Shown here piece by piece: positions 1,041-55,119 of a stretch of DNA of 64,000 nucleotides. Position numbers and translations under genes: made by a program. The notes beneath the pieces are model-generated. The model searched no databases. It worked only from the letters and a program-made list of their open reading frames with translations, and was not told the origin of the DNA. The DNA is taken from positions 4,092,001-4,156,000 of the forward strand of contig JANJGN010000042.1 of NCBI GenBank assembly GCA_026770705.1. Reading direction: 5' to 3'. Within the stretch, counting starts at the first letter, position 1, and each line of letters begins with the position of its first letter. The stretch is from Isurus oxyrinchus (Eukaryota).

Positions 1041-1951
1041 TCATCTTTTAAATAATTTAACAAGCAGATTCAGTGGGAATTTCACACCATTCTTTAACTC
1101 TTCTCTGAATTTACTCTGGGTTCCTGCATAAATAAATGGATTGACACAGGAACTCAGGAGCTGAAGCATACGTGCGCTTTCCTCCATAAGAAAATTTGAT
1201 TCATTGAAATTGGAAGAGTCCACATAGCTAAGATTCGCAATTCGGACATAGAGGAAGTTTATAAGTCTTAACAAATATAACAGGATGAAACTGCCCGAGA
1301 TACAGAAGAGCAAAACCATGGACTTCCTTCTTTTCTGTATCTCTGGGTCACTTTGATTCTCTCCATTGCTCTGGATCCGGAGTCTCTTGCGGGCTCGACT
1401 GGCTGCTACAATGTGTCTGATAGTCAGAGTATTGAGCATTAATATAAGGACGAAGGAGAGGCAAAGGGTTAAAACGGCGATTATGCTTTCATAAGCGACC
1501 CATGCAGGTGACGTATAAAATATTGATTTTGAGTTGCATTGCCAGGGTATATTGTCAATTATAAAGGCAGGCTCACACATAAAATACAAGGGGATGCTTT
1601 TAACACAGTTCAGTACACAGACAGTTCCTATCACCGCAGCCGCCATTTTCTCAGTGCAATATTTAATTTTCAGCTTCTGGCAGCAAATGGCTACAAATCG
1701 GTCAATGGTGAAAGCCACTGTTACCCAGACAGAAGAATCGATGACACCATAATTTAGCACAAGTCTGAGGCTGAAGACCGGTGTGATGGCCAGGAGACTG
1801 AACGGGAAATAAATATCTATAATCCGGTTTAATATCACAACTGTGATCCCGACAAGGAGATCCGTTATGGTCATGGACATCAAGTGGTAAGTGATACATT
1901 TGGAGAGACCGCATCTTCCTCGAATCAGTATCACAATCACTGCCAGATTAG
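1041..1951 (-). CDS. GPR139/142-like class A orphan GPCR (gene A), exon 2; full CDS join(3284..3215,1951..1041), 326 aa
   Basis: Acceptor ...ctgtcacag|CT AAT CTG GCA GTG (phase 1, ANLAVIVILIRGRCGLS). Open frame with hydrophobic helices, TDLL (TM2), FTIDRFVAIC (DRY-like), ECL2 Cys, SSCVNPFIY (NPxxY), stop TGA at 1043-1041. Family name is from recognition, not a search. Confidence 0.9.
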
Positions 1952-2429
1952 CTGTGACAGCGAAACGCAGCCAGCGAATAGCAGATGTTGAGAAAGAAAT
2001 TTAGAACATAAACTGTTGGAGATTCTCAGTCAGGCAGCAGTTGAAAAGAGAGGAACAAGTTAGCATGTCAGAGAGATGATCTGGAGGAAAATATCCTAAA
2101 ACATAGCAATCTGTTCTGTACTGTCAGCAACACTGAGGGCTAACCCAAGGAGAACCTTGAACGATCTGGATTGTGACTCTGAAATACAATCGATGTTGTT
2201 CTCATTCAATGTTTAGAGACGAGAAAATATAAGAATACTCTGGAACATTGGAAATTCTAAGGTTAACAAATACTTTATAGAGCTTGAAAAAAGTTCAGCA
2301 AAAAAAAAGCTACTACTTAACTGAAAAGAAGATGAAGGAGATCTGATGCATCTGAGCTGTAACAATTCGAATTTAAAGGAACAAGGCTTCACAGCCACGA
2401 CTAAAGCTGATCATGCTTACTATGGTTCA

Positions 2430-2600
2430 GGTGTGGCTTAGTTTGCAGCAATCTCACTTTTGAGTCAAAAGGTTTAGCGTTCAAGCCCAACTGTTGGACT
2501 TCAGCAAGGTTGCACTGTCCGATGTGCTATACTTCAGCTAAAACAAAAGACTGAGGACCGGTCCAATAACTCGTGAATACAAAATCCAACTTAAGAAATA
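2430..2600 (+). mobile_element. tRNA-derived SINE fragment
   Basis: GTGGCTTAGTT...GTTCAAGCCC A/B-box-like head; similar to 52140-52360. Confidence 0.45.
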
Positions 2601-3214
2601 GCTGTTATTCAGATTCCAGTGCAAGGAGCAATATATGCACACAGCAAAGTGAGGTAATTCAATAGTTGTGTCAACAACACAATAGAGCTACATTTACAGC
2701 GTGATAAATCATCCATGGTGACAGTGCCAACAATACAATAGATCTACATTGCAGTGTGATACTAGTGTGCTAAATACTTCGCCCACATTAATAATGACAA
2801 TAACAACATCGAATTACATTTAGACTGAGAGGCGGCACTGCTAAGTGGGAGAAACTTTTTAGTGAAGACATGAAACGGCATTGGTGAAGCAATCATAGTA
2901 ATTGCTGAAATGGATTTAAGTGTACTGGCAATGGGAAGAAACTGTTCTCGTGAAGGGGAGAAATGATACCCTTAAAGTGGAGAAAATGGACCAGTAATGA
3001 GCAGTAATATTGCGAGGAAAGGGAAGGTTTAATATCATTTAAAAGAAGAATTCACTAAACGTGGAGATAAGGATACTGTGAAAAAGGGAATACATTATAA
3101 AAAACAAATTATCATGTTAATGAGGTGAACCATAGAGAAGCAGTACAGCTAAATTAAATAAGTGATAGAGTGAAAAATGATTCTGGTAACTGGTAACTAA
3201 CCCTAATACTTTAC

Positions 3215-3284
3215 CTGGAATACCGATAGCTGCAAGAACGGGATAGTAAATGGCGAACACCAGACCTTGTGGTATCCCATGCAT
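3215..3284 (-). CDS. GPCR gene A, exon 1 (MHGIPQGLVFAIYYPVLAAIGIP)
   Basis: ATG at 3284, 70-nt exon ending CCA G|gtaaag. Phase matches exon 2. Near-identical in length and sequence to exon 1 at 18701-18770. Confidence 0.88.
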
Positions 3285-3335
3285 TTCTCTCATAAGCTCC
3301 GAGGGTGCTCTGTGCTACACCGAAAGACTGTTACA

Positions 3336-3490
3336 TTTATACATGATGTCGGACTCTAGGGAGACAAAGGGAAGGCCTTTTACATTAATTACACCAACTG
3401 AAAAAAAACATTTTAGTGCAGCTGGTGCCGCACTCGCGTTTATATTTTTGATGGAATGGAATCTGTTTTCAAGGACACTGGCACGGCTCC
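3336..3490 (-). promoter_or_regulatory. Proximal promoter of GPCR gene A
   Basis: TATAAA (3341-3336), O/E-like TCCCTAGAG (3362-3354), homeodomain TAATTA (3391-3386), CAGCTG E-box. Aligns by eye with 18490-18700. Confidence 0.55.
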
Positions 3491-6589: not shown

Positions 6590-7508
6590 TATCCCGCCAT
6601 TGTCACAGTTTGTGCCATTTGGCAATAGATTGAAAGAGTATTTAAACGCCCTTTTCAGCTCCGCTTTGTATTTCGTCTGGGTCCCTGCATATATAAATGT
6701 ATTGCTACAGGGTCTAAGGAGTTAAAAAACTATCAGCTTTGCTGCAGAATATATTTTGTGTCAATGGAAATGGAACTGATAGATCAGCTATTTCCCATAC
6801 TTTGTGCAAACAGGAAACGTACAATATGCGTTAAGACCAGCTGGAGGAAACTGCCTGAGATGGAGAAGAGTACAACAATAGACTTGCTGTGGCTCTTCAT
6901 CTCGGAGACACTCTGATTCTCTCCATTCCTTTGGGATCAGAGTCTGCTGCAGGATCTACTTGCCAGTAGAATATTTCAGAAAGTCTCAATATCGAGCAGC
7001 AAAATCAGGAGAAAGGAGAGACATGGAGTTAGAATACAGTCCAGCCAGTCAAATATTCTCCATGGAAATGAAATATAAAATGCATCATCTATGAGAGAGC
7101 ACCGAGTTACATTGTTAACGATATAAATAGGTTCATTTATGAAATAAAAAGGGTGTTTATCAAAGTGGACAGCACACAGATCATTCCTAAATTTCCAGTT
7201 GCTGTTTTCTAACTGCAGTATTCCATTTCCAGCTCCTGGTGACAAATGGCCAGGAAGCAGTAAAAGGTGAATTTGAAGGTTGACCAGAGAGTACAACATT
7301 TGGAACCAAAGTTTAAAGCAACAAAGACGACATAGAGGAATGCTGGACAGAAAACTGACTGGAAAATAAACAGCTGGAAATGAGCTTAATGTCACGATAA
7401 TGCTAATGACAAGGAGATCTGTCACCACCATGGATACCAGATACTGCGTGATACATCAGGAGAAACCACATATTCCTCTGGAAAAGATCACAATAATTAG
7501 AAAGTTAG
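6590..7508 (-). pseudogene. GPR139-like GPCR pseudogene (exon 2 remnant)
   Basis: Acceptor cttacag|CT AAC; reads ANFLIIVIFSRGICGFS*CITQYLVSMVVTDLL with an in-frame TGA and later frameshifts. C-terminus CSNTFIYAGTQTKYKAELKRAFKY is homologous to gene A. No exon 1 found. Confidence 0.88.
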
Positions 7509-7517
7509 CTGTAAGGC

Positions 7518-7518
<1 letters not shown>

Positions 7519-7551
<33 letters not shown>

Positions 7552-7552
7552 A
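7519..7552 (+). repeat. (GA)n microsatellite forming the polypyrimidine tract of the pseudogene acceptor
   Basis: Direct reading; paralogous tract at 9418-9440. Confidence 0.85.
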
Positions 7553-9258
7553 GAACAGAATTAGTGCCGAAACTCTCAGCTACACCTGCAGTTTGGTGGG
7601 AGAGGGTATGGAATTTGCATCATGAATACTTGATTCAACGCTGGAACTGATTAATTTAGCAAAGTAGTACGGCTGGTTTTTTTTTTATTAATATTGTCCC
7701 AAATAAATTGGAAGTTGGAACATGAAATAACGCAAAACACTTATTTTCTGATTCTTGTAAAGTTTATGCAATCTAGAAGTAGAAGGAATTGAACAAGACT
7801 AACGTATTAAATTGAGAAAAGGGCAGCCTGAAGATGGCATTACGTACAGATAATTAATCAATATATTTAGTCGTTTAAAATGCGGTAAATAATAACGTTA
7901 TGAAATGTTATGGAACCGCTATAATACTTAAAGCAATAGAATGACAGGAAATAAGATATGGATAATAACTCATTCCAAATAAATAAATGAGGGAACCACG
8001 GGACGATGGAAAATAAAGTTGAGCGAACGCCATTGATTCAATTCGGGTTTTGTTCCTGTGGAAACAGGGCAAGGAGCATGAGCGGTTTTTTTGCAGCTCA
8101 ATGATTGCTGTAGTGCGAGATTAGTTCTCGCATTATTAGTGAAGATTTTCAATTGAAGAAGCAGAAAGACCTCCACTGATTAAAAGTGCGACAGAGCAAA
8201 TAGTGCTGTCCTTCCTCAGGAGTATGCAGCTAGGTTAGGAACTCGAGATCGGGAGTAGGGCTCAAACCCATTGCTTGAACGCTGATATTTCAAAATTTAG
8301 ATCCCCGAAATAAAGTGGCTATGAGCATAATAAATGCCGGCTCCGATGGGTATCACACAGCCTTGACAACAAAATACATTTTAGGAGAATTGAATGGAGC
8401 AGTTAATAGCAGCAACAGAGTTAAAAAAAAGTCTTCATAACAGTTCATCGATAGCAACTATTTGATAAATTTACGAATAAACATGTGGAGGGTAAACAAA
8501 AATATAGAAAAATACATACCACTAATATTTATGGTTTCCCGCCAATTGGAAAATATGCTGATCCCTAATGGCTAAGCTCAAAGCGCCACAAAAAACACCC
8601 TTCCATAAATTATATTTCTTCTCCCACAGTTTGCTCATTCAGTTATCCAACAACAACTCTTCGCAATGTCCTCTTCTTAACCAAAATATTTACTGTGCCA
8701 CATGGCTTATTTTCGGCAGCAATTTGGATACGAAACTTACTGTTGCCTCATTTTTTAACCTCCTAAATGCGGTGAAAAGCTGAGACCCAAATACAAATCG
8801 TGCGAATCAGCTGTCACCCCCTGTCAGTTGAACTGTATTCACAGTATCCATCAACAAATTAGATGAACATTGCATATACCACAGCCATCGTGACTTAAAT
8901 TTACATCGATATCACTGTAAATTAACATCTAGGCAAGTACAATAAACGACCTGTTTAACTAAGAAATTCAAGAAATAATGACATTAATGAAGTAACAATT
9001 AAACTACATTGTGCAGCATTTGTATCATTGCCAAAAAGTCCGTCAACACACGACACAGAAATCGCAGGAACACATTAAGCAATCTTGAATCTTTTACTGT
9101 TGGAGAGCAGCCAAACATCCGGTAGAAGCTAGAAAGTAAACATCTGACCCTCAAGCCTTCACAGTTAAACAAAGATTGAAAAGACCTAATTCCGGAAAAA
9201 AATACGTAGAATACAATGAATTCAGATTTAGAATGTTTCTGTCTCGTCTTTTGAGTGG

Positions 9259-9409
9259 CTCAGAAAACTGACTGGAAAATAAACAGCCGAACACCGGCTT
9301 AATACCAGTGTAATGATAATAACATGGAGATCTGTCACCGCCATGGATACTGCGTATCTGGAAAGACCACATCTTCCTCGGGAACGGATCACGATAGTCA
9401 GAAAATTAG
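9259..9409 (-). pseudogene. Truncated GPR139-like exon 2 fragment
   Basis: Acceptor cttgcag|CT AAT; ANFLTIVIRSRGRCGLSRYAVSMAVTDLHVIIITLVLSRCSAVYFPVSFLS, then homology ends at the duplication junction. Confidence 0.85.
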
Positions 9410-11019
9410 CTGCAAGCGAGAGAGAGAGAGAGAGAGAGAAGGGAAGAATTAGTGCTGAATCTCCCAGCTACAATGTCCGTTTGGCGGGAGAATGGTATGG
9501 CACATGGGCCATCGATACTTCATTCAACGCTGGAACTGATTAGTTTACCAATGCATTAATTCTGGTCCATTTTTTATTTATATTGTCTCAGATAAAGTGG
9601 AAGTCGGAATACAAAATGACACAAAACTGTTACTTTCCGATTCATGTACATTTTATGTAATCTAGAAGGAGAAGGAATTGATCTTCACTAACGTATTAAA
9701 TTGGCAAAAGGACAACCACCTGAAAATGGCATAAAATACAGATAAAAGCTCAATACATTTATTCATTTATAAATACAGTAAATAATAACGTTATGAAACT
9801 TTAAATCACTATAATAAAGAAACCAATCGAATGACAGGAAATAAGATATGGGTAATAACGAAATCCTAATAAATATCAGAAGGAACCAATGTACGTTGAA
9901 AAAGAAAATCTAAGCGAACACCATTGATTCAACTTGGGTTTTGTCCCTGTGGAAGCAAGACAAAGCGCATCAAAGGCTTTTATTCAGTTCAGTGACTGCT
10001 GTAGTGGGAGATTAGGTCTCGCAGCAGTAGTGAGGGTTTTCAACTGATAAAGCAGAAAGACCTCGGTTTACAGCCTCGTCGGAAGGACCACAGAGTAGAT
10101 AGTGCTGGACTTCCTCAGCGGCATGGAGCTGGGCTACAGACACCAGTTCGGAAGTAGGGAACAAACCCAGGGCTTTCCGAATGAACACTGAGATTTCAAA
10201 ATTTAGTTGAGCTAAATAAAGTGGCTACGAATATAATTATTTCCAGCTCCGAAGGGTATCTCACAGCCTTGAAAACAAAGTGCACTTCTAAAGAGAATTG
10301 AATGCAGTTGTTAACAGCAGCAACAGAGTTAAAAATGGTCTTCATAACAATTCATCGACTGCAATGATTGATGTTAAAGTTACGCAATGCAAATCGAACA
10401 CCAATAAACATGTGGCGGGTGAACAAAAACATGGAAAATACTTACCACTATCATTTATAGTTTCACGCTAATTAGAAAATATGGTGACGTGCAATGGTTA
10501 AGCTTAAAGCGCCAGAGAAAAATATCTTTCCACAAATTGTATTCCTTCTCCCACAGTTTGCTCATTCAGTTATCCAACAACAACCCTTCGCAATGTCCTG
10601 TTCTTCTCTAAACTATTTACTGTACCACATGGCTTATTTTCTGCAGCAATTTGGATACGAAACTTACTGTTGCTTCATTTTGATCCTTCTAAATGCGGTG
10701 AAAAGCTGAGGCCCACATACAAATCCTGCGAATCAGCTGTCACTCCCTGTCAATTCAACTGTATTTGCATGATCCATCAACAAATTAGATGAGCTTTGTA
10801 CACACCGCAACCATCGTGAGTTAAATTTACATCGATATCAATGTAAAATTAACATCTAAGCATGTAAAATAAATGACCCGTTTAATGAAGAAATTGAGGT
10901 GTAAATTACAATATTGAAGTATCAATTAAACTATATTATGCAGCATCCGTATCATTGCCAATAATCCTGTCAACACAAGAAACAGAATGCCTGGGAACTC
11001 ATAAATCAACCTTCATGCG

Positions 11020-18700: not shown

Positions 18701-18770
18701 ATGCACGGATTGCCAAAAGGTCTTATTTTCATCATATACTATCCCGTCCTTGCAGCAATCGGGATTCCAG
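18701..18770 (+). CDS. GPCR gene B, exon 1 (MHGLPKGLIFIIYYPVLAAIGIP)
   Basis: ATG at 18701, 70-nt exon, donor G|gttaag; paralogous to 3284-3215. Confidence 0.88.
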
Positions 18771-20160: not shown

Positions 20161-21068
20161 CTAATTTGGCAGTAATTGTGATCCTGTCCCGAAGAAGATG
20201 CGGTCTCACTGGATGTATCACATACTACCTGATGTCCATGGCCGTGACGGATCTCCTGATCATGATCCTTGCTGTGATGTTAAACCGGATTGTAGGTACA
20301 TATTTCCCATTTAGTTTCCTCTCCATCACTCCGGCCTTTGCTCTCAGTCTTGTGTTCATATATGGCGTCAGGGATTCTTCTGTCTGGGTGCCAGTTGCTT
20401 TCACCTTTGATCGATTTGTAGCCATTTGTTGTCAGCAGCTGAAAACCAAATATTGCACCAAGAAATCGGCAGCTGTGGTCATAGGAACTGTCTGCGTTGT
20501 GCATTGTGCTAAAAGAATACCCTTGTACTTTGCTTGTGAACCTTCTGTTATCACGGACAATACACCCTAGTACTGCAAACTAAAGCCAATATATTATTCG
20601 TCACCCGGATGGGTGGCATATGACAGCATAAATGCCGTTTTAACCCCTTGTCTCCCATTCGTTCTTATTTTGCTGCTCAATGTTCTGACGGTCAGGCACA
20701 TTGTTGTGGCCAGTCGAGCCCGCAGAAGACTGCGAGCCTACAGCAAGAGCGAGAAACAAAGCGACCCAGAGATGGAGAAGAGGAGAAAGTCCATCGTTTT
20801 ACTCTTTGCCATCTCGGGAAGTTTCATCCTGTTATATTTCCTCGCTCTTATAACTTTCCTCTACGCACGAATTGCCAGCGTTAGTTATTTCGATGGCTCG
20901 AATTTCAATCAATCAAATATAATAATGGAGGAATGTGGACTTATGCTGCAGCTTTTAAGTTCCTGCATCAACCCCTTTATTTATGCAGGTACCCAGAGTA
21001 AATTCAGAGAGGAGTTAAAGAATGGTGTGAAATATCCATTGAGTCTGATTGTTAATTTTTTTAAATGA
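20161..21068 (+). pseudogene. GPCR gene B, exon 2, interrupted by a single nonsense codon
   Basis: Acceptor tctgtcacag|CT AAT TTG. ORFs 20118-20570 and 20613-21068 are in one frame, separated by TAG at 20568-20570 where gene A has Trp (DNIPW vs DNTP*). DRF and SSCINPFIY intact. Confidence 0.88.
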
Positions 21069-22430: not shown

Positions 22431-22439
22431 ACAACGAGT

Positions 22440-27590: not shown

Positions 27591-27599
27591 TAAGTGATG

Positions 27600-32860: not shown

Positions 32861-32988
32861 ATTCCACAGACCACATCTGGATTGAAGGCTATGAGGACGA
32901 TAACGGGAACATCTGGACAAAATCTCTAACATTCATCGTCCTGTTCTTCCTGAGCATTTTCGACAGCATTGCCGTCACTCTGGTAAAG
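32861..32988 (+). pseudogene. Orphan immunoglobulin heavy-chain (IgM-like) transmembrane exon TM1
   Basis: Acceptor gtgtag|AT, donor AAG|gtgaga. Encodes (D)STDHIWIEGYEDDNGNIWTKSLTFIVLFFLSIFDSIAVTLVK, matching the IgH membrane pattern (acidic spacer, W, TFIVLF.LS.FYS..VTL.K) with Y>D. No CH exon found upstream in the window. Confidence 0.85.
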
Positions 32989-33229
32989 GTGAGAAGATTC
33001 AATCCACTCATGCTACAATCTGGCAGAAGCGGTTTGAAAATTTTCTAAACATTTCAACAATTAAAAGTAATAACATAAATGCACCTGATCATAAATATCT
33101 GCTTCATTATTGCCTCCTTCTTTTACAGATCAAGTGATTGGTTGAATTTGGACCTCGTAGCTTTTCCTCAGCTGTTTTTGCAGGTCTCTGTATTCCAATA
33201 TAAAATTTGTCTTCTTGGTGATTCTAAAG

Positions 33230-33265
33230 GTGAAATGTCTTCACTTTGTGATCCCGAATCTGTAA
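33230..33265 (+). pseudogene. IgH TM2 exon, with the usual stop lost
   Basis: Acceptor attctaaag|GTG AAA TGT ... TAA, giving VKCLHFVIPNL*. Canonical IgM TM2 is VK*. AATAAA at 33546. Confidence 0.7.
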
Positions 33266-38054: not shown

Positions 38055-38956
38055 TCACTGTTTAATACATTTAAAAATTACAGAAAAGGGATATTTCACT
38101 ACATTCTTCAGCTCATTTCTGAATTGAGTCTGGGTCACTGCATAAATGGCCGTGTTAGTGCAACAACTCAGGAGCTGAAATATAAATCCCAGTTCCTGCA
38201 CAAACCTAGGAAGGTATACAGGAATTGCATCTAACACATATAGCCTATTACAAACAGAATTTATCATAAAAACTAACCACAACAGGATAAAATTCCCCGA
38301 TATAGCAAACAGTAAAATGATGGATTTCCTGCGTTTCTCCATCTGTGGGTCCCTGGGTCTCTCCCCACTGCAGTGAGCCCGGAGTCTCCTGCGGGCTCTG
38401 CTCGACACTAAAATATATCTGACAGTTAAAGCGTTCAACATCAAAATCAAAACAAATGGCACAAATGGTGTTAAAATATAATGAAGACATTCGATTGCTG
38501 CCCACATTGATGAGAATTCAGCATCCGTCACTAATGTGCAAAACCAAGGAGCATTGGAAAGCGAATAATGACCTACATACATAATATACCAGAATGAATC
38601 CTTCACACAGAATAGCAGACTGACTGTTCCGAGAACCACAGCCGCCGTATGCTGGGTGCAATATTTTGTTTTCAACTTCTGGGAACAAATAGCCAGAAAT
38701 CTATCAAAGGTGAAAGAGACTGTGAACCAGACAGAACAATCTGTGGCTGCATAAAGCAGGACTGCATGGATATTACACACTTTAAACCTCCACATGAACT
38801 GAAACTGAGCCCAGTAAAGAATAGCAATTTGCCTGAATATGAGATCAAGGATAACGACTAGTAGATCCGCGGTTGCCATGGACACCAGGTAAAGGGAAAC
38901 ACATTTTGAGAGACCGCACCTTCCCCGAGACAGTGTCACAATAGTCAGTATGTTCA
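38055..38956 (-). CDS. GPR139/142-like GPCR (gene C), exon 2; full CDS join(44314..44218,38956..38055), 332 aa
   Basis: Acceptor ccttacag|TG AAC (VNILTIVTLSRGRCGLS). Uninterrupted frame with MATADLL, FTFDRFLAIC, APWFC, LSCCTNTAIY. A different subfamily from genes A and B. Confidence 0.92.
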
Positions 38957-39689: not shown

Positions 39690-40200
39690 TGTTACATAAG
39701 AATGCAAGAACTAGGAGCAAGAGCAAGCCATATTTCTCTTTGGTCAACTCTAATGTTCATTAAACCCATGGCCGTTCTTCGAATTCTACTATCCAAAACT
39801 ATCCCCATTTATCTTAATGGCCTTAGAGCACAAAAATCTACCGACCAACAGCCCTCGAGAGTTAATAATTCCGACGTTTCTCCACTTTCTAAGTGAAGAA
39901 GATTCTCTTCATCTCAATTCCAAATGGCCAACATTTTATCTCAGGGATCGAGTTCTCGACTCCCCACCTAAGGGAAACATTCTCTCAGCATCAATGCTAT
40001 GAGGACACTAAATTATTTTGTATGACTCGATGAGATAATCACACATCCTCTAAATTTAAGAAGATGCATGTCAAATTTGATTGATTGATTGATTACTTAA
40101 GTATATTTTTCCTTAGGCAAGAAGGCCAAAACTGTACACATTAATCGTTATGTTTTCTCACCAATCACATGCATAATTCTATCAAAAGTTCCTTACTCGA
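39690..40200 (-). mobile_element. Decayed CR1 3' fragment in the gene C intron
   Basis: Resembles the minus-strand tails at 27600-28000 and 36125-36500. Confidence 0.5.
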
Positions 40201-40236
40201 ATACAGGGAAGACTGCCATTTATTATCCTATTCACT

Positions 40237-44217: not shown

Positions 44218-44314
44218 CAGAAATGCCAACAGCAGCGAGGAGCGGATAGTAAATCCTTTGCAAATCATAAATCACCCAGACAATCCGAAGTTCAGTTGGA
44301 ATTTCAAAGAACAT
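44218..44314 (-). CDS. GPCR gene C, exon 1 (MFFEIPTELRIVWVIYDLQRIYYPLLAAVGIS)
   Basis: IYYP.LAA.GI motif as in genes A and B; donor G|gtgagt, phase 1 matches exon 2 across a 5.26 kb intron. The start codon is less certain because the frame is open further upstream without an ATG. Confidence 0.85.
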
Positions 44315-44399
44315 GATCTCATTTGCTGTGAGATCCAATGATCGCTGTTTATACTGGCGACCACACTCTGTCAAACACTGATATACACATTGAAAACAT

Positions 44400-44590
44400 T
44401 GCCTAGATATAGGCGGAGGAGAGTCCTGGTGATTCAATTAAACAATACACTGGCTGGCATTAATTACAGTCACTTAACAAACAAGATGCCTTAACCCTTT
44501 CATCCCATCACTTTGTATGGAAAAAATATACTAAAAACTACATGGCATTCCTGTCAAGATAATTTATTCAAAGCAAGCACGTGACGTCAG
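44400..44590 (-). promoter_or_regulatory. Proximal promoter of GPCR gene C
   Basis: Minus-strand TAATTA (44466-44461), TAATTG (44440-44435), TATA-like TATATC (44411-44406); overlapping CACGTG and TGACGTCA at 44578-44589. Confidence 0.5.
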
Positions 44591-44899
44591 CCACTTTTGT
44601 GATAAACAGGTTATGGAATTCTGCAGGCTTGCAGCACAGATAAGAAAAGAAAAACAGACTCAAATCCAGAGCTTTGATTATTCCGGAGATAAAATGCTGC
44701 CAAACAATTTCATGGTTTCAATTAATTTCTCAGGGGGTGAACACAAGTGCCAGAGTATGGTCAGAAGCAGTAACTGTCCAAAAGGATGCATAGTTGATCA
44801 TTGTCTAGTGATCAGAAAGGGAAATAGTAGACTGATGATTTGAAACTGCTTGGTTTAACAGTAAACGTAAAACTGATGCTATGGATCAACAATTACCAT

Positions 44900-45450
44900 G
44901 GAAATGATATGAGAGTTTAACTTTAAAGCTGACCTGGAAAATGATGCCCCGTTGTAACTAAACCCTGTAATTGAAATCCATGGAATATTAGTGTCCATGT
45001 GAATGACACTACACAATCTAAAATGACTTTGTACCTGATACCACGGACTTACAGTGACCATGCAACTAATACCTGGTCATACAGTGCTCATTTGAATTAT
45101 GCATAGGTCCATCAGTGGGCTTCCTGCAGATACTGTTGTCAAACGGTGACCATGGGATTGAAATGTGGTATCCTATTCGCCTTGTACCCGAAACTTCGCT
45201 GTAACTGATAATCGAGTACAACAGTGACGTTGTAACTGATATCCCAATCTTACATTGACCATGTACATGACATTCCAGTCTATCAGTGCTATTCTAACTG
45301 ATAATTCAGTCTAACAGTGGCTTTGTACCGGATACCCCAATTTGAACGTGAATATGTACCTGACGCCCCGGTCTAACTCTGACCTTGGAACTGGTATACC
45401 AGTTTAATAGTAAATTTGTACCTGATACTGCGGTGAAAAATTCACCTTCT
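44900..45450 (+). repeat. Degenerate ~31 bp minisatellite (approx. TGTAACTGATACCCCAGTCTAACAGTGACC)
   Basis: TGTA(A/C)CTGA recurs at about 31 bp spacing, e.g. 45200, 45231, 45262, 45324, 45355, 45417. Confidence 0.75.
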
Positions 45451-46059
45451 GTTACCCATGGCTAGTGTCATAACTCAGCTGATTTTCAATCCAATTGTTA
45501 GTTTTAGGAATTAAAGATTTAACTGTAGGCAGAGGGGATATCTGGTGGCAAAAACTGGTAAAAGCAGCCGTAAATTAAATGCAATTTAACCAACTTTGAA
45601 GTTTATTATTCGTAAAAGTTTGGAGCCATGTTGACCTAAGAGGCTCACAGCTAAAATTACAAGATCATGATAATGTGGGCGCTTTTAATTAGCTAAGGAC
45701 AAGGAGGCAGGACCTTTGAAGTTATTCCAGTAAATAAAAAGCTTGTTACGTAGTTTCCCAAGATTAAGGTAAGTTTTGGAGCTAACAGGTAGTTAAATTG
45801 CATTTCTCAGTGGTAACAGACCTTGTGTATCACTTGAGGATCGGTGAAGCTCAGTTGAGATTTTAGAACAAGGTGGAGTGAAGGAAACGTATTTGTCATC
45901 AGAATTCAGTTCAAATTCTGGGTGTTTGCTTAAAGAATTAAATCTTTTGTCATCTTCAGAGTTTTTTCAACGCTGATTTAAATGTCTGGTTTGGCCAAGC
46001 TAAGGGAGCAGAGAAGGAATGATTTATAGATACAACCCTCCATAGTCGGAGATGATCAC

Positions 46060-46993
46060 AGTAAGGGGAGCCCTGGCTGGAGGCCGCTACATCGCCAGAG
46101 ACAGCGATGTTGAAAGGTGTGGGGGTCCTCTGCCAGTCCGTGGCCTCTCAATGTTGTTACGGGCTGCCTTCTCTTGAAAGCACAGAGGAGCATTCATTAG
46201 TCCACATCCAACATGCAGCGCCATTACAGCCTGGCGAAGGCCAGCATTGGGGCGCCTTGCAGGCCACATCCATATCATGGCCGGTGATTCGCATGGCACT
46301 CAGTCAAAGCAGCCAAAGCTCAGCAACTTGGCCAGAGCCGGAGTGATTGACAGTTAGGACTCAGGTGCTGACACGCTGAACTGCATGGGGAGGGCGGCTA
46401 GTTCAAAACAATTCCACACACTGACTGATGCCAACACAGCAATCATCTTTTCCGAGTGTAGCAGGTCAATCAAACGCCTCTGGCACTGCACCCAGGTGTG
46501 CATTATGGCTGTTCACCGAGGCTGCCACTTCCTCCCAATGCTTCTTTGTGAGGTTTCGAGGTGTCCTCCTTCCATCTCTTCAGACAAGGGTGTCCCTTCC
46601 GGCAGCCACGCCCTCCATGAGGTCAGCGAGGCACACCTCAGTAAAACTGGGGGCCGAATGCCCAAACAACATGCCCTCCCGCCTGGTGTTTGCTGCCGCA
46701 CAGGAGTCTATCTTTGCAACAGCAGACAGACGTCATTCTCCAGCAGCCTTCCTGGGGCTGCCTGGGCCGTTTTCAAACTGGCGGCCGGATCGCCATTAGA
46801 CCCGGCGGCCGAGAGGCTCCCATTCCCCCTCGGCCCCTCCAACCTGTCACCAGCTGAGTTTCACGCGGGGTGGCCCTTAATTGAGCTGCCAGCGTGAAAT
46901 TGCTTTCCGGCCCTGATCGCGGGCTGGCAGTCGCGTTCCGGAAAGCTCCTGTCCACCTCTCTATGCCCACCCAATGAGGACAAAACTCCTCCC
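46060..46993 (-). mobile_element. PIF/Harbinger DNA transposon remnant with Myb/SANT-like (NAIF1-type) ORF
   Basis: Minus strand APSFTEVCLADLMEGVAAGRDTL..RDGRRTPRNLTKKHWEEVAASVNSHNAHTWVQCQRRLIDL, then a second exon-like EKAARNNIERPRTGRGPP. GC-rich terminal region beginning GGGAGGAGTTTT. Confidence 0.7.
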
Positions 46994-48704
46994 TTTGACC
47001 CAGTGGCCATTGGTAAAACCCCCATCTCTTTCATCATAAACTGCACTCTCTATAGCGTGATGGAGAATTGAGAGTTTAATTTGAGTCCATTTTACTTTGG
47101 AAATAGGTTCAGACTTCGTGACCTGCTGAGAAACCTATAAGTCCACACCTGGGCTGTGTAATTAGCCTGCCATGTGTGCAGGAGAGAATTCACCAACTGT
47201 CCAACCTGCTGAGGTTCTAGTGGCTCTATGCAGACCAAGCGATGTGGCTTAATTGGTTAATCACCATTTAGATCCAAGTTCACTCACACGTTCCACCAAT
47301 GAAGGCATAATTGCATTCAGATACAGTAAGAGCAAGAAGAGATCTACTGCCCCTCCTCAATACTGTCTCATACATACAACCACACCGGTGAGTAGCTGTT
47401 ACCCACTCCCAATGATTTCAATCTTCCATTTCACTTGGTGACTCATTGACACAGCGATACCAAAGAGTGGACCTGCAACAGTCCGGGCTGTGGCCAGGCG
47501 TTACTTTCTGCTTATGCACTAGAGTATTCACATTGTTAAGAGGTCAAATATCTCTTTGGCGTTTCTGTGGGATTTCAACCAGCAAATATCACTGCGAATG
47601 AGATATCATGCACCTGTTCCAGCTCTGAGATGGGCTGTGCATAGTTGCCCTTCACAATGAGACACGAACATGCTTGAGTAATGGGGGGAGGGCACTGGAA
47701 TATATAGATATATTTTTTCAGAATATCTCTTAGAGAGAAAAATGCCTGATCTATAATTTACATCATTATATGACTCTGGAAAAAGAGGATATAGAACGTT
47801 TTGAAAATTGACTCATGGGAATTTGAAGTCGTTCCTGTGCTGTAAGTTCACTATTGTGTCACATAGTTTGAGCTATCGAAGTCTTAGAGCAATTTCGGAC
47901 CTCAATTAGTTGCTTATCGAAAATATTACAATAGCTTCCAGAAAGAACCTGAATTGGCATCAAATTTGCAAACACAAAAATAGTTTCAAGCCCCTGGAAG
48001 AGTAACGATTGGGGTTTGGAATTAAAATTATTCTAGGATTTATCCAGTTTACTCTATTTATTTTTGAGTGACATGGGTTGAAAGATGCTGTTCAGAGTCC
48101 GGAGATTTGCAAGCATTTTTAAATTATGTAAATTGAGGATTTCCCTCACCATCCATTGCTCCTTGTTCATGCCTCTACTGGTATCTTCTATTTAACTAAC
48201 TTAGCCAGCCGTCACGCGTAGCTAATTGTGGACACAGATGTGACTGGTAACTGATCAGTCACTGGACCAAAGAGTAATAGATAATCGTTGAGCATGTGAC
48301 CTTGATATTCATCACCAAGCGATGTATAAAAGATCAACTTAACACAGTTGCGTGTTTGCCTTCTGAAATGTTAGGCATAAAAGCCTGTGTTTGGGGATCG
48401 TTATGGCCTTGGTAACTGCTTGAATGTAAACGTTTGTTAAGTGAATATGAACCTGAACTGTTTGAGGGAACAACTGCAGCGCCACCACTAGCGATACACG
48501 GTGGTGGTGGTATCACGGGTGTATGAGCAATATTTACTCCCCTCCTCCTTGCACCCTGACAGAGTTGTTGGGTTCTCCATTTTGATAGACTGTGCATTAA
48601 TAAAATAAGTCAAAATAGCAGGCAATGTTCTTGCAGTTTGTCCGCTTCTATTTCCATTTAAAACGACATAAAATATATACAGATACATACGTGTTGATTT
48701 CGAA

Positions 48705-48830
48705 ATGCATGTGGTTGTGTGGGTACGTGTGTGTTTGCGTGTGTGCAAGCGCGCCTATGTGTGTACGCGTGTGTGTTTGTTTGTGTAGCCTCTTTGACAA
48801 GTGTCTGTGCGCATGCCTGCCTGTGTTATT
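48705..48830 (+). repeat. Imperfect (GT)n microsatellite
   Basis: Direct reading. Confidence 0.75.
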
Positions 48831-50419
48831 ATAGTTCAGATCTTCAACATTTTTTTTGACCAAGAGTCTGTTTATCTCGGCCTTGATGCCAGGTCATTTT
48901 AATCTGGCTCTTTCTATGCAAGGAGGTGGTAATGTGACACATAAGTTTTCGTTTAACGTTGTGTGGTCTACGGTTAAACTATGTCATCAAATAGCAGATG
49001 ACAAGATTCAATGGAGCAGGAAGCATGATTTATGCTGCCAGAGAGTAACTGAGAGCTGTTAATTACCTTTGATCATAGATCCGTTGGTTTCTCTGACAAT
49101 AAACTAAGAAGCGGGTATCCAACGACCCCTCCAGCTTGCAGCAGTTATAATCATTCAAAGGATTTCATTACAATTGTTTAACTTCCTTAACTTCTCCTTG
49201 CGCTTTTAGAACATAAAAAAATAAACATCTTATTGATTGGAGAATGCTTACAGGCCTGATTCTTTGTTCCAAATTTCTGTGAATTTCATGCTGTACGAGT
49301 GAAATTTTAACAGAGCAGAAGTTGAAAATTCAAAAGACCTTTACAACTCCTGGATCTTCATCAAGCATCGTAAATACATGGAAAGAAAAAATCACGTTTA
49401 TATCTCTTTCTTAAGATGTTATTTAAACAGATTCTGTATTTTCCTCTAACTCTATCACTAGATTAAAGGAGTGACTATTCTTCACTAGATACGCCCTTGT
49501 CGTTAAGCAACCTGGGACACTCTGAACTATTGAAGGACTTTATATAATTTCAGAAGGTGCTGTCTCCCAGTAACTATGAATGAATAATGAGATGGAATTG
49601 TGAAATGAATGTACAGCTTCTTTCCACTAATTGTCAGTTTCTATGCCTTTTTCCCTTTCCCTTGTCTAGGACTCTCCTTCAATTTATCTCTGTCTATTTG
49701 ACTCTGTATCTATCCTTAACTCTTTTTTTTTCTCATTTGCTCGCCTTGATCTCTCTGTGTGATGAATATTCTCGCTCTCGCTCTGGTTAATTAGGCCAGG
49801 GTTGTTTCTAGATCGATTATTGCTCTGACATGGAATTCATAGCTGTGCAATGGATTAGCTCCGATTCAATACAATGAAGACTAAATCCATCCCTCACTTT
49901 TGATTCAGTACTCGGAGGAACATAGTGTTTTTTTGAGTTGCCATTTTGTATCTATAGCTCTCTGTCAGTCTTCGAATTAAACACGTACAGAGAGAAAGGG
50001 AAGAGCCAAAAATATGCAGGAGAACAATGTCTTTATATTTTTTTTCTCAGTTCAAACTGGTTAATAACAAAGACTAATCAACAGAGTTTGTGAAGCCGTC
50101 ACAAGAGATTTTGATAAGGAGTGTAACGAAGCTTTGCTGCAAATATATAAGATTTTGCTAACAACACATTTGGAGAACTGTGCTCAGTTTTGGTCCACCT
50201 AACTGGGGCTGGGTAGCTCTGCCATAGATTGGTGCAAGCAGATTCACCAGTCTCATTACAGCACGGAGCCGGAAAGGAGGGGAGGGGGGCGCTGTGGTGG
50301 CGGGGTTGGGGAGGGCGGAGTGGTGGGGGCGGGGAGGGAGGCATTCGACATACACAGTCTTTGCCAGACCTCCGGAGAGCAAACCAGTCAGATCAGCAAT
50401 TTCAGCTTCATCTTCTTCT

Positions 50420-50700
50420 TCATCATCATGAGAAACGAGTCAGCCTGAACCTATCAGGGTCAAGCTGTCTGGCTTAAATTTCAAACAATTCTTGGCAGTT
50501 AACTGTCCTTCGCCATAGGTGGTGCATTATTCAGGAAAATGCCACTTGCCAACCAATCATCATTCTCCTCACATACAGTATAAATTGTGCTCCCCCCTCC
50601 CACGTATTTTTATTCTTACGAGTTTCCTGATGAGTGCAGGGTGATAAGCTGAGACCTGTCTCTTTTTCAGAAATACTCAAGTTCTGTCCGAACAAAAACC
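50420..50700 (+). mobile_element. Penelope-derived repeat, same family as 22040-22430
   Basis: ttggcagttaactgtc...ccaatca...cctgatgagtgcagggtgataagc...ctcaagttctg. Confidence 0.55.
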
Positions 50701-50989
50701 AAAGTGTATTCTTTCTGCATTGAATAACAGTGCGCAGTGTTGATTGTTATATGAGTGTCTATGACACCAATGTTATATTGGTGTCCATCACACAACTTGC
50801 ATCTGGTAAGGAACAGCATTAATTGGAGTCAATGAAATATTAAAGATCAATTGTGTCTATTAACTAACAAATGCCATTGATGTACCTCGATATTGAGGCC
50901 GGGCTATAGATATGAATTTGGATTTTTTAAAATTTTGATTCGTTGCCTTTGTTTGTCTGCCCCACCCCTGCCAGCATCGCACCTATCGG

Positions 50990-51330
50990 CTGCTGGAAGA
51001 CATCAAACTCAGGAAACTTACATTTGCAATTTTTGTGTTGTTTATAAATCTCGGAGTCATACTCATGTGCAGCTAAACGTGGTGGTAGGATGTAACAAAT
51101 GTCTTGAATATACATCACATACTTCCGTACAGCATGGAATTCTGACACAGGATACAACTTCAACATGTCTTCTGATCGCCAGTGTGTCTCCTGGACAAGA
51201 ATAATATTCATCAAAGTGTTCCTTTTCCTGATAAATGTTCAACCAAGTAAGTATTTCATGCGATTGTAACGCTTTTATTTTGTTAACTGTATTGTTATTT
51301 TTCCTCCAATTTTTCTTCACTCCATTGGTG
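50990..51330 (-). mobile_element. L1/Tx1-type endonuclease remnant
   Basis: IILVQETH preceded by NGV..ILTWL, resembling the N-terminus of APE endonucleases. Confidence 0.4.
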
Positions 51331-51523
51331 AGGTCAGCTTCCTCGGCTTCGCTCACTGGTCAGTGAGTGTCTGTACAGTATCTACATTAGTCACAAGCTG
51401 ACCTGTCACTGTCTCAGCGGGCCGGAGAAGGGCTTCTCTATTTCCAGCAGAAATGGTAGCCTTGGCTGAACACTGCCAGAAGAAATTTACACCGATGATG
51501 GCCTGGGATCAGTTAACTGAGGG

Positions 51524-51569
51524 GTGAAATCGCTGAAGCTCCCTGTTTTTGTTGTTGTCTTCACACTCG
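51524..51569 (+). pseudogene. Probable defective leader exon of V segment 1
   Basis: 46-nt GTG-KSLKLPVFVVVFTL-G, hydrophobic and phase 1, 145 nt before the V acceptor. Begins with GTG and is followed by AAATGC instead of a GT donor. Confidence 0.5.
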
Positions 51570-51714
51570 AAATGCAGTCAACCGTTGTATTGAAGGAAAT
51601 GATTTAACGTGAGCCCGTGTGTGTGCGCGTGTGCGTGTGCATTGGAAAGCCTATTTCGTCCAAATGAAAAAAATCTAAAAGTTGCATTGATAACATTCTG
51701 TTATTGTTTTCCAG

Positions 51715-52022
51715 AATACGGCCAACAGGAGAGACTTTCCCAAACACCCTCAATTGTAGCAGTGAGTGAAGGTGATACTGCGGTGTTGTCCTGTATCTAC
51801 CCAGCGACATACACAGCTGCTTACCTATTCTGGTACGTACAGTACTCGGGAAAAGGCCTTCAGTATATGCTGCTCAGACACACGACTGGGAATGAAGAGA
51901 ATGCACCAGCTTTTGCAAAGCGCTTTTCAGCCGTACAGGATAGGAGCAACACAAACATCCCTTTGAACATCACAGACACCCAGCTCTCTGACTCAGCCCT
52001 GTATCACTGCGCGGCTATGAAG
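51715..52022 (+). CDS. T-cell receptor alpha/delta-like V gene segment (V exon open; leader appears defective)
   Basis: Acceptor ttttccag|AA. QERLSQTPSIVAVSEGDTAVLSC-IYPATYTAAY-LFWYVQYSGKGLQYML...KRFSA...LNITDTQLSDSALYHCA has the V-domain Cys, Trp and Cys; followed by an RSS. Confidence 0.88.
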
Positions 52023-52061
52023 CACCACGTTACATAAATCCTTACCACTGGTACAAAAACT
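52023..52061 (+). other. 23-bp-spacer recombination signal sequence, non-canonical heptamer
   Basis: CACCACG (52023-52029) + 23 nt + ACAAAAACT (52053-52061). Confidence 0.75.
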
Positions 52062-52139
52062 ATCAGCTCCAGTTGTTGTGAATTCTCTGAATTCCCTGCT
52101 TCAATCAGCCGTCACACTGCTGTTATTCCTTTACAGATT

Positions 52140-52360
52140 TGTGGATCAGTGGTGGCACTCTGGCCTCAGAATCAGAAAATGTTATTTTAAGTCCTAGTCC
52201 AGAGATTGCGTTTTTAATGTAGACTGGCATTTCGGTGTAGAACTGTGGGAGCTTTCGAATGTATTGTACTGTAGCCCCGTTTGCTTCCTCTGTTACACAT
52301 AAATGATGGCATATTTCAAGAAGGGCATTGCAGGTCTCCCAGTGCCCTGAATTAATACTT
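52140..52360 (+). mobile_element. tRNA-derived SINE
   Basis: GTGGATCAGTGGTGGCACTCTGGCCTCAGAATCAGAA head; related to 2430-2600. Confidence 0.5.
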
Positions 52361-53109
52361 CATGCCGGCAGAGCAGCAGACTCCGTCTGAACATGACTTT
52401 AATGGTGGAATGTGTTGTCAACATTGGGAAGGGACAAAGATGAAGAAACTACAACCATTTGCATGCGTTTATTCGGACAGCAGGCACGTTCTGTTGAAGA
52501 GTCATGCGGTCTCGAAACAATAACTGTGTTCCTCCTAGCAGGTGCTGTCAGAAAAGCTGAGGTTTTTAGATGTATTTTCATTTTTGATTTCATTTAATAC
52601 AAATGTGGCTCATCCCACCATTTGACAGCGAACACACGGTCTGCAGATTCAACATCAATATCTATTGTATAAAATGGCAAACTGCATTTGATATTCACAA
52701 GTCTATAACTTGGTACTCCGCGGTATATCTGTGTGTGCAGGAATGGACAGTGTTAAAGTCACACGGATTCTGCTCAATAACAGAACAGTTGTGGTGTATC
52801 AGTTGTGGGCTACAACATTCAGTTGTGACAGTGAAAACTTCACATTACATATTGAAGAATTTCGATGGGAGGAATGGAGATAGGAATGCTGGAATGGAAG
52901 AACGAAATCAGGAAGGGGAGAGGAAGGATGAAGTTAGGAAGGTGAGTAGGATGGAAGGGAGGAAACTATAGATCTGCCTGATCTGTTGGTGAACATCTAT
53001 TCTCAACCAATATAATAAAAAGGGGTGATATCGTCAGGATCATATTGCTGCTTTTTGGGAGCTTGCTGGGCTAAAGTTTCCTGACGTGCTTCCTAAATTT
53101 ATTTTATTT

Positions 53110-53470
53110 GTTTCATAGGATGTCGGCATCGCTGGCAAGACCTGCATAAGCTGTCCATTCCTAAATGTCACTGAGCTGAATGGCTTGTTAGGGTGTTTCA
53201 TCAAAGGGCAGTCATCAATCAATCTGGAGTCACATAGAGGCCAGACCAGGTAAGGGCGACAGATTTCCTTCCCTGAAAGATATGAGTGAACCACATGGGT
53301 TTTGTGACAATCACTGATAATTCACAGACACCATCATTGAAATGAATTCTCGATTCAGATTTTGTTAAGTTAATTTTACCAGCTTTCCGTGGTGGATTTT
53401 GAATATGCATCTTCCAAAGATGAGCCTGAATCTCTGAATAATTACTCTAGTGACATTGCGAATAAGCCAT
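53110..53470 (-). mobile_element. SINE / LINE-tail repeat
   Basis: ctggagtcacatagaggccagaccaggtaagggcgacagatttccttccctgaaaga; same family as 14190 and 25950. Confidence 0.6.
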
Positions 53471-54626
53471 TGTCTGTTCTCTAAGAGGTGATGTTGCACG
53501 GCGTAACTTTACACGTAAAGTACGTAAAGAGCAGCTTTGGTTTCATGTTTTGCAGGAAAACATTCCCCACCCCCTTGTCTGTTCCGATCCTAATTCATGT
53601 CCTTTATTTAAAAAAAAAATTCTATAATCAGTTCCCCAGAAATGTACTTGGAGAGTGAACATGTGGTGTCACCAGTGTTTTCAAATGTTGACTCATTTTC
53701 TATGAATATTTTGTCTCATAGAATTGCCCTACTTTCCAGTCAGCCTTTTTCTTCTGTCACCACTCAGTTGGAGATAAGGAGCCGCCGTTAGAGCCGGAAA
53801 TGCACCTGTCTCGTTCTGTCCCACCTTGTACCGCAACTGTCACTCCCAGGTTACAGCAGCAGCGAGAAGCGTCACCTCACGAGGTGGTTTTAACATAACC
53901 TCAACAGTTAAAAATGCCCACGTGTGTTTTACGTCTCATGGAAGCTTTGCTGTGGCAAAAGCGCTTTCATTAGAATTTCATTGCCTATGCAAATTATTGC
54001 ACTTGTTAATGTCACAGAAGGAAGTAAAATACAAAGTATCGTTTTGATAAGCAGTTGGTAACAAATAATGTAACAGAATTGTCCAAAGGGGAAACCTTTT
54101 ATTTATATGCCCCTTGTTTATTTTTTGTGAAATCCAGGCAGGACTCTAATATCCTGGTGCCTCTAATTGAACTCAAGCAAAAAAACAAAGGTTCAATATT
54201 TACAAAATATTCCCTGCAAGTTAATGACTTCTGCCACGTTCTGTGACACGCTACATTATATACAATACGTTGGTGAACTTCAATGTACTTGGTGAAATTC
54301 AATCGTAATTTCCAGCTGTTAGTCATTGCAACAAGTTCACACTTGCGTCGAGAGTGAATAATCTAAATTTGATGCTGTAAAAATATATTGCTTCCTTCCC
54401 TCTGAATAAACTCGTTATCCTGTTTGGATTTTTGATGCTTGCAGCTTGGTCGATTGTAACGTTTCCTTTCTCATTGCCTGGAGAATCGTAGCCCTGGTTA
54501 ACCGCAAAGATTGAACATTACGACATATCAGTGGGGACACAAGAAGGGAACAACGATCCTCAATGCGGCTAGTTTCAGAGGTCAATTTGTGCCATTTTCT
54601 CTAGGTTACTATGTTAATACACGTTA

Positions 54627-54684
54627 ATGAAAGCGGCAGTGCGCTTACTCCTTTTCGGTGCCGTGTTTGGAGCACTTATCACGG
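54627..54684 (+). pseudogene. Leader exon of V segment 2 (MKAAVRLLLFGAVFGALIT)
   Basis: ATG at 54627, hydrophobic signal peptide, consensus donor G|gtaagt, 85-nt intron. Confidence 0.85.
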
Positions 54685-54769
54685 GTAAGTATTATTGGAA
54701 GTATTTTTGAACCAAACGTAACAGCACTTTAAAAATGGGTTAGCTTTTGATTTTATTTTCCTTTTAAAG

Positions 54770-55080
54770 CTGGCCTGACTCAGGAAATCTCTGTGACACA
54801 ACACCTCCTGACAGTGGTTTGGACAAAAGGAGGCATTACAACTTCAGAATGCTTCTATTTCAGTACCAAGGGTTCCTTCAGCTTATTCTGGGACCTGCAA
54901 TACCCGGGCAAATAATTACAAATTCTACTTCGCAAGATTTCGGCTGGTTACCAAATGAGAGCACATTCTGCTCGAAGCCTTTTCTCGTCTGTACTGGTCA
55001 CTACGAATACCATCATTATCTTAAAATTCTCCAAACTGCGGCTCTCTGACGCAGCCGATGTATTACTGCGTATTGACACT
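54770..55080 (+). pseudogene. TCR alpha/delta-like V pseudogene
   Basis: Acceptor ttttaaag|CT. QEISVTQ...TTSEC FYFSTKGSFSLFW DLQYPGK*LQILL...LKFSKLRLSDAA, then a +1 frameshift into MYYCVLT. One stop and one frameshift. Confidence 0.88.
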
Positions 55081-55119
55081 CACAGCGATTGGAACCAGCC
55101 CGACAATCGTACAATAACT
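55081..55119 (+). other. 23-bp-spacer recombination signal sequence
   Basis: CACAGCG (55081-55087) + 23 nt + ACAATAACT (55111-55119). Confidence 0.85.

Follow-up and report, generated by a model that had tools for sequence, protein, structure and literature searches.

The 64,000 nucleotides of the Isurus oxyrinchus genome analyzed here (the window) are one copy of a segmental duplicon lying among IgM miniclusters, and not a TCR locus. Probably, the window derives from a block of 55 kb or more that was multiplied recently and is situated between shark IgM miniclusters. In this block an IgM tail and a pair of TCR V segments are broken passengers, likely brought by segmental duplication, and T-cell rearrangement likely does not remove the GPCR genes that the block carries.

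The five GPCR copies described in an earlier note on this DNA were all recovered. They are GPR139-related and two of them, A and C, are intact:

1041-3284, - strand: GPCR A, whole gene, two exons, intact
3215..3284, - strand: GPCR A exon 1 (MHGIPQGLVFAIYYPVLAAIGIP), phase-1 GT donor
1041..1951, - strand: GPCR A exon 2 (end of TM1 to stop), open, PF00001 E 2e-19, A-type subfamily of the elasmobranch GPR139-related family
6623..7512, - strand: decayed GPCR pseudogene with stops and frameshifts
9258..9410, - strand: 5' fragment of a GPCR exon 2, product of a 1.9-kb tandem duplication (7348-9221 versus 9261-11013, ~79%)
18701-21068, + strand: GPCR B, whole gene, one in-frame TAG
18701..18770, + strand: GPCR B exon 1
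20161..21068, + strand: GPCR B exon 2, single in-frame TAG at 20568, A-type, inverted paralogue of A
38055-44314, - strand: GPCR C, whole gene, intact
44218..44314, - strand: GPCR C exon 1, 32 codons and 1 base, phase-1 GT donor
38055..38956, - strand: GPCR C exon 2, open, member of the C-type clade, whose orthologues occur in Heterodontus, Heptranchias and Pristiophorus

These genes belong to a GPR139/142-related class A family, of which the A-type and C-type subfamilies are concentrated on IgH/TCR scaffolds. Class A (rhodopsin) membership is indicated by PF00001 above cut-off and a DRF/DRY motif at TM3; olfactory receptor identity was rejected given two coding exons and the lack of any OR Pfam family (7tm_1 and a weak Srw only). 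Human GPR139 is the top PDB match of the family profile (70 bits, E 1.7e-18, the next at 45 bits), and judged by profile GPR139 and GPR142 (PDB 7VUG, 9M42) are the nearest characterised receptors. NCBI's automatic name for the shark relatives is "probable G-protein coupled receptor 139". Gene C by itself matches GPR139 weakly (E 5.5e-5), below 5-HT1E and ADRB1, which argues for a putative distant paralogous expansion. The human GPR139 and GPR142 genes are single-copy, unlike the shark family with its more than 2,000 database relatives. The white shark genome paper reportedly notes additional GPR139-like genes, and the family may accordingly be less of a novelty. Purifying selection between paralogues is apparent in all 36 pairs of nine paralogues (dN/dS 0.25-0.45), and the GPCR tree is a quick one built from 26 of the 120 homologues listed, all of at least 200 aa. 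With their GPR139/FMRFamide-receptor-like features, the intact A and C would encode receptors sensing small molecules or peptides, as suggested by family resemblance, and such genes would evolve by birth and death.

The IgH TM exon pair noticed earlier between genes B and C is also present, and is of IgM type:

32861..32988, + strand: orphan IgM TM1 exon, TM Tyr of the cluster copy (FYS) replaced by Asp (FDS)
33129..33137, + strand: orphan IgM TM2 exon (IK-stop)

Its TM is 81% identical to that of a complete IgM cluster at 3.91 Mb of the window's scaffold, C42. This VH-D-D-JH-CH1-4-TM cluster occupies C42:3.892-3.913 Mb, 180 kb left of the window. Homology between the two begins just ~22 bp upstream of the aligned part of TM1 and extends 3' of TM2 to ~34540. 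No VH, D, JH or CH exon was found in the window or in the 170 kb to its left, and the pair does not amount to an IgM minicluster. A retrocopy origin was rejected because the TM1-TM2 intron is retained, as was splicing of the TM onto gene B, which has its own stop 11.8 kb upstream.

Two V segments of TCR alpha/delta type, both on the + strand as first reported, lie 7.3 and 10.3 kb from gene C exon 1:

51572..51608, + strand: V1 leader exon, called from its position and donor, in-frame TAA
51715..52022, + strand: V1 exon, TCR alpha/delta type, open frame, V-set E 4e-16, pseudogene via its leader
52023..52061, + strand: V1 23-RSS, heptamer CACCACG (3 mismatches), nonamer ACAAAAACT
54627..54684, + strand: V2 leader exon, open
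54770..55080, + strand: V2 exon, a pseudogene with a TAA at 54913 and, ahead of the second Cys, a one-base frameshift
55081..55119, + strand: V2 23-RSS, CACAGCG / ACAATAACT

Their type is indicated by the V-set domain, the 23-RSS and nearest genomic relatives in the TRAV/TRDV array rather than among VH. V1 stands at 35-49% to the Vs of the array on C26, a 40-Mb scaffold, and falls outside the VH clade in a V tree whose long branches do not separate alpha from delta. Among longer proteins, full-length relatives numbered two for an array V and none for V1.

Both window Vs are broken, a point absent from the earlier note. The TAA of the V1 leader and the frameshift of V2 each recur in 21 of 21 copies read (the window and 20 of 29 others), and pN/pS (1.11 for V1, 1.09 for V2) fits neutral change. 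Neither V combines an open leader, an open V exon and a 23-RSS as a functional V would, and the pair is predicted to be incapable of productive rearrangement. As the call of the V1 leader rests on position, a more distant leader exon may exist; a scan of 17 copies found no hydrophobic alternative, and a scan of similar kind succeeded for 6 of the 7 Vs of the C26 array. RAG may still cut at these segments, given that 19 of 21 copies have an open V1 exon frame and that V2 keeps a near-consensus 23-RSS.

The duplicon is best seen in the recurrence of these parts. V1 exists in 30 copies at 85-100% identity on 11 scaffolds (17 on the + strand, 13 on the -), and each of the 30 V2 candidates sits ~3 kb from a V1. 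An upstream TM at 15-21 kb accompanies at least 22 of the 30 V1 copies, gene C at least 20 and gene A at least 21, and the complete A-TM-C-V order of the window is found in at least 16, the window's own possibly counted, on several scaffolds. C42 alone holds eight copies of the V pair, five on the + strand and three on the -. Against this reading, C42 is a scaffold separate from the TCR core, and haplotype duplicates may be included among the 30 copies, even if C42 alone accounts for eight.

That a fault of the assembly, either a mis-join or uncollapsed haplotypes, accounts for the adjacency or for the number of copies is extremely improbable, although the assembly is fragmented (5,558 scaffolds) and several near-identical blocks stand on different scaffolds. 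The 464 kb around the window are free of Ns, and the block copies diverge by 0.4-12% and bear lesions of their own. Eight copies share C42, and on C26 these parts recur in another order, 83-89% identical in DNA. The same part order in at least 16 copies on several scaffolds makes a one-off mis-join unlikely. Contigs from four public runs of two related organisms cover 27-30 of the 30 bins of 32500-52200, for the most part with 90-95% identity, and the unique DNA separating gene C from V1 is covered as well; no contig of these runs bridges gene C to V1, so that they establish the presence of this DNA in relatives and not its adjacency.

It had been proposed that, should further Vs lie to the left, deletional rearrangement would excise the window's GPCR genes in T cells. 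This would make the window the V-distal stretch of a functioning TCR alpha/delta locus, a model that we consider very improbable and already largely refuted. Its appeal comes from the orientation of both Vs, which point right with their 23-RSSs kept, from related A-type GPCRs on C26 that have such a geometry, and from mammals, where olfactory receptor genes are interspersed with TRAV1 at the 5' end of TRA/TRD (PMC2275272). C42 does carry further Vs left of the window, of which the closest, at 3.77 Mb, is on the same strand, but the Vs found on this scaffold all repeat the window's own pair, some on one strand and some on the other, and each copy read has lesions. The 12-RSS nearest to the 3.77-Mb pair belongs to an IgM D that itself lies left of the window, at 3.893 Mb, so that a joint with it would leave genes A-C in place.

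The TRD/TRA cores are located on C242 and C26, not on the window's scaffold. A C-delta search gave matches on C242 and C26 only (2 of 27 candidates) and a TCR TM search on C26, C242 (twice) and C15 (4 of 5); these protein searches found no TCR C exon on C42 or C38, and they were used in place of a degenerate TCR TM motif pattern that performed at chance level (882 matches versus 1,020 in the control). A single JH and no TCR J motif occur in the 464 kb surrounding the window. The earlier note had held that pieces with no D, J or C on the scaffold would be dispersed orphons; TCR C was not found on C42, nor TCR J within the 464 kb, and D, JH and C of IgM are present on this scaffold. With the window outside the TCR core, its Vs broken and no TCR C found on C42, excision of its GPCR genes in T cells is unsupported.

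The core on C242 comprises C-delta and C-alpha along with 11 J-delta and 88 J-alpha motifs, and the 195 kb covered there contain no GPCR. The geometry once suggested for the window exists instead on C26 (33.1 Mb), where three A-type GPCRs lie between intact same-strand V genes and the D-J-C delta core: the analogy with mammalian olfactory receptors holds there and fails for the window itself. On C26 the GPCRs stand at 33.07-33.14 Mb, minus-strand Vs at 34.45-34.51 Mb and the D-delta at 29.93 Mb. Deletional joining at this site would, from the arrangement of segments, remove the three genes. That each T-cell clone would thereby lose a V-dependent set of GPCR genes, yielding a clonally variable chemosensor repertoire written by RAG, is distinctly unlikely. 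Elsewhere on C26, a V-pair copy at 5.96 Mb lies 3' of C-delta, 24 Mb away, and the interval 22.9-23.1 Mb, guessed as the TCR C end, was rejected as it held only V edges and zinc fingers.

The GPCR subfamily could also be kept in the antigen-receptor complex for a reason, with expression in lymphocytes or thymus, regulation shared with IgH/TCR, and selected co-amplification with IgM clusters. This is unlikely, in spite of a marked association: 143 of the 150 best A-type matches, a count inflated by recent duplicates, fall on scaffolds with an IgM CH4 exon, and among the gene C matches listed, 61 at 76% or more are on duplicon scaffolds and 89 at 65-69% on others. Gene C is intact in 18 of 20 copies. 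In the horn shark, gene C orthologues are chromosome-linked to a TRAV model on one record of 59,489,666 bases, and of the 47 horn shark rows this alone shows such a linkage. However, the wider family is scattered across dozens of non-Ig scaffolds (6,718 first-look candidates, not a copy number), and no GPCR occurs in any of three samples, each of 195-200 kb, from the TCR core and the V array. An RNA look-up for gene C gave no entry, a result uninformative about its expression. Moreover, pN/pS among recent gene C copies, the best-scoring ones being picked, is 0.78 (p 0.11), not significantly below 1, and old linkage requires no function.

Most likely, the position of the GPCRs would reflect an old residence in the antigen-receptor complex together with hitch-hiking on IgM cluster duplication, rather than RAG control. 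Unequal crossing-over and inversion among IgM clusters would have produced mosaics of TM tails, orphan Vs and GPCR genes, which would then have been amplified. The lesson of the window itself is a modest one: shark IgM territory grows by mosaic segmental duplication, which multiplies broken pieces of V and TM and thereby inflates the numbers of V and IgH counted. Of wider interest is the large GPR139-related family in animals described as poor in such receptors (PMC8455134). Two of its subfamilies reside in the IgH/TCR complex, one sharing its linkage with the horn shark.

Compared with the shark IgM minicluster, VH-D1-D2-JH-C-mu, in which rearrangement is confined to one minilocus (PMC2435157), the window keeps the TM tail only and has lost the TM Tyr, whereas its TM1-TM2 with the 3' flank is 85% DNA-identical to that of the complete cluster. 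TCR-type Vs between IgH clusters are known from the elasmobranch antigen receptor complex, AgRC (Flajnik et al. 2025, PMC12227049), and IgM clusters with intervening TCR-type Vs also occur here: C42 has eight IgM CH4 matches and eight V pairs, and C26 a similar mix. In contrast to the AgRC as described, the V pair here is a 30-copy passenger of a GPCR-bearing duplicon. A term search of the main text and two supplements of that paper found no mention of GPCRs, and their residency in or link to shark IgH/TCR loci was not found in print by a literature search covering journals outside subscription. The mammalian TRAV1 region (PMC2275272) resembles the shark arrangement in its short class A GPCR genes among TCR V segments, and V-to-D joining at C26:33.1 Mb would likewise delete GPCRs. 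The shark genes are two-exon genes and not olfactory receptors, which makes this an analogy and not conserved synteny. Should lymphocyte expression, or V-delta deletion at C26:33.1 Mb, prove true, the shark genes would form an independent parallel to the olfactory receptors of mammalian TRAV1.

All of the parts that the earlier note had listed (five GPCR copies, an IgH TM pair and two V segments) were found in the window, and the observation is confirmed as listed. GPCR genes A, B and C are GPR139-related, the TM1-TM2 pair is of the IgM type and V1 and V2 form a TCR alpha/delta-type pair.

Exons 3284-3215 and 1951-1041, minus strand: GPCR gene A, intact
6623-7512: decayed GPCR copy
9258-9410: GPCR 5' fragment, product of a 1.9-kb tandem duplication
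Plus strand: GPCR gene B, with one TAG
32861-33137: IgH TM1-TM2 exon pair
Exons 44314-44218 and 38956-38055, minus strand: GPCR gene C, intact
51715: V1, 23-RSS present
54770: V2, 23-RSS present

The LINE-like fragments and the five copies of a SINE-like repeat of roughly 100 bp (16047-17647, 22434-23828, 40323-41449 and 57217-57597) are ordinary repeats. A weak RVT_1 match is located at 22794-23258, and a 93-bp unit is repeated 1.9 times at 45202-45375, just upstream of gene C exon 1.

The surroundings of the window are IgM territory. The window occupies 4,092,001-4,156,000 of scaffold C42 (7.08 Mb), and the 464 kb surveyed around it harbor a sole complete IgM cluster (VH-D-D-JH-CH1-4-TM, 3.892-3.913 Mb) and two additional orphan TMs, along with GPCR genes and pseudogenes numbering about a dozen. 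A second A-pseudo-B-TM-C block, of about 90% identity and devoid of the V pair, is located 159 kb farther right. The window TM and the real cluster match at 85%, starting some 22 bp ahead of the aligned exon portion and continuing through 1.7 kb of 3' flank. This TM has kept its intron, has lost the TM Tyr and is a DNA-level fragment. Orphan TMs are common debris in these regions, since the TCR V array of scaffold C26 has them as well. Outside the window, orphan IgM TM exons were located at C42:4,084,218 and 4,285,783 and at C26:34,456,619, 34,569,341 and 23,038,660; one of them comes straight after a VH-JH, with no CH exon separating the two (C26:34.568 Mb). C2H2 zinc-finger exon clusters occupy the interval from the IgM cluster to the GPCR block (C42:3.96-4.02 Mb) as well as the margin of the TCR V array (C26:22.93-23.02 Mb). 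The same GPCR, TM and IgM CH4 elements are copied at C20:75.9-77.7 Mb, on a 94.9-Mb scaffold separate from C26, which is either a second chromosomal IgM cluster site or a mis-placement. Non-IgM C1-set exons (36-41% to IgM CH4; C26:0.69 Mb, C38:13.30 Mb and similar) recur on C26, C38, C42, C100 and C126 and are likely IgW or IgNAR clusters within the same duplicon field.

It is highly probable that the window is a duplicon carrying broken Ig and TCR passengers. V1 is present in 30 copies of 85-100% identity on 11 scaffolds (17 plus, 13 minus), its next relatives showing 35-49% identity and lying mostly in the diverse V array at C26:23-40 Mb and on similar scaffolds, and all 30 V2 candidates stand about 3 kb from a V1. 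With the spacing and orientation of the window, the TM is found upstream of V1 in at least 22 of the 30 copies, gene C in at least 20, gene A in at least 21 and the three together in at least 16. Lesions were read in the window and 20 of the 29 other copies; in all 21 the V1 leader contains a TAA and the V2 frame is shifted by one base ahead of the second Cys. A script run on 17 copies found no hydrophobic alternative V1 leader; a similar script found leaders in 6 of 7 Vs of the C26 array. Because the lesions are common to all copies read, no alternative leader turned up in those 17 and pN/pS is about 1.1 (V1 1.11, V2 1.09), they likely predate the block amplification, although 19 of 21 copies have an open V1 exon and the RSS of V2 is still good. 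On chromosome-scale C26 the parts of the window recur in a different order (5.86-6.06 Mb), which disfavours a mis-join and favours mosaic duplication.

Protein relatives come from sharks, which places the source among the elasmobranchs. The GPCRs fall in an extensive elasmobranch family that carries the automatic name 'probable GPR139' (2,101 of 3,115 candidates). With a 35-row family profile, human GPR139 was the top PDB match (70 bits; runner-up 45), gene C alone matching it weakly; an olfactory receptor identity was rejected. Among nine GPCR paralogues, dN/dS was 0.25-0.45 in all 36 pairs, and the 20 recent gene C copies, of which 18 are intact, gave a ratio of 0.78, not significantly below 1. 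A quick tree separated two subfamilies in the window, A-type and C-type. Of the best 150 A-type matches, 143, a number inflated by recent duplicates, are on scaffolds that also have an IgM CH4 match, the remaining seven being on C387, C180 and C33; C-type matches comprise 61 at ≥76% on duplicon scaffolds and 89 at 65-69% on other scaffolds. Gene C groups with P0005 of horn shark, P0003/4 of Heptranchias and P0006/7 of Pristiophorus (SH-aLRT 100, quick tree). Horn shark P0005/P0274 and the TRAV-bearing model P0235, the sole horn shark V among 30 proteins looked up, both lie on a 59,489,666-base record, a length given in 1 of 47 horn shark rows of the relatives listing. This record length suggests a chromosome-level linkage of gene C orthologues with TRAV in one other species.

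The earlier note also proposed that deletional rearrangement would excise the window's GPCR genes in T cells if further V segments lay to its left. The TCR cores were located on other scaffolds: a shark C-delta query matched only C242:616,927 and C26:29,902,127 (2 of 27 candidates), a query with the TM also matched a C-alpha-like exon at C242:752 kb and a further exon on C15, and the J motif used on the TCR cores matched only a single JH in the 464 kb of C42. No GPCR is present in C242:570-765 kb, which carries 11 J-delta, C-delta, 88 J-alpha motifs and C-alpha; C26:29.76-29.96 Mb, free of GPCRs and of J-alpha, has one D, 11 J-delta and C-delta. The nearest left-hand V on C42 (3.77 Mb) is another copy of the broken V1/V2 pair, and its closest 12-RSS, that of the IgM D at 3.893 Mb, is itself to the left of the window. 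Shark IgH rearrangement is moreover described as confined within the minilocus (PMC2435157). On these grounds, the excision model fails here. The two delta cores (C242:590-752 kb and C26:29.90-29.93 Mb) both comprise 11 J and one C; their C exons are about 85% identical in protein, and a J-alpha array and C-alpha follow the C242 core only; the pair looks like a duplicated TRD locus, a divergent haplotype or a mis-assembly.

The geometry that the window lacks is found at C26:32.99-33.19 Mb, and the earlier interpretation is partly supported. Three A-type GPCRs, one with an open exon 2 and a non-canonical exon 1 donor and two with stops, are mixed there with NARTCR-type V pairs and VH-JH. They are flanked on one side by the D-J-C delta core (29.9 Mb) and on the other by Vs (34.45-34.51 Mb) with leaders and 23-RSSs, the core and these Vs both being on the minus strand; the V exon at 34,466,922 is open through the second Cys. 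In the assembled order, joining of these Vs to the 29.9-Mb D across 4.5 Mb would proceed by deletion, with loss of the GPCRs. The NARTCR pairs (33.07-33.17 Mb) comprise a germline-joined NAR V with a stop and a supporting V-delta with a perfect 23-RSS; no CH exon was found near the VH-JH there. A further A-type match lies at C26:36.29 Mb.

What merits pursuit is the residence of a GPR139-related subfamily in the antigen-receptor complex of sharks, on which a search of open-access literature found no paper. TCR alpha/delta-type Vs are reported between IgH clusters in four elasmobranchs (PMC12227049), term searches of its text and supplements returning no mention of GPCRs, and cartilaginous fish are described as having a paucity of GPCRs (PMC8455134). 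Mammalian TRAV1 is reported as interleaved with olfactory receptor genes (PMC2275272).
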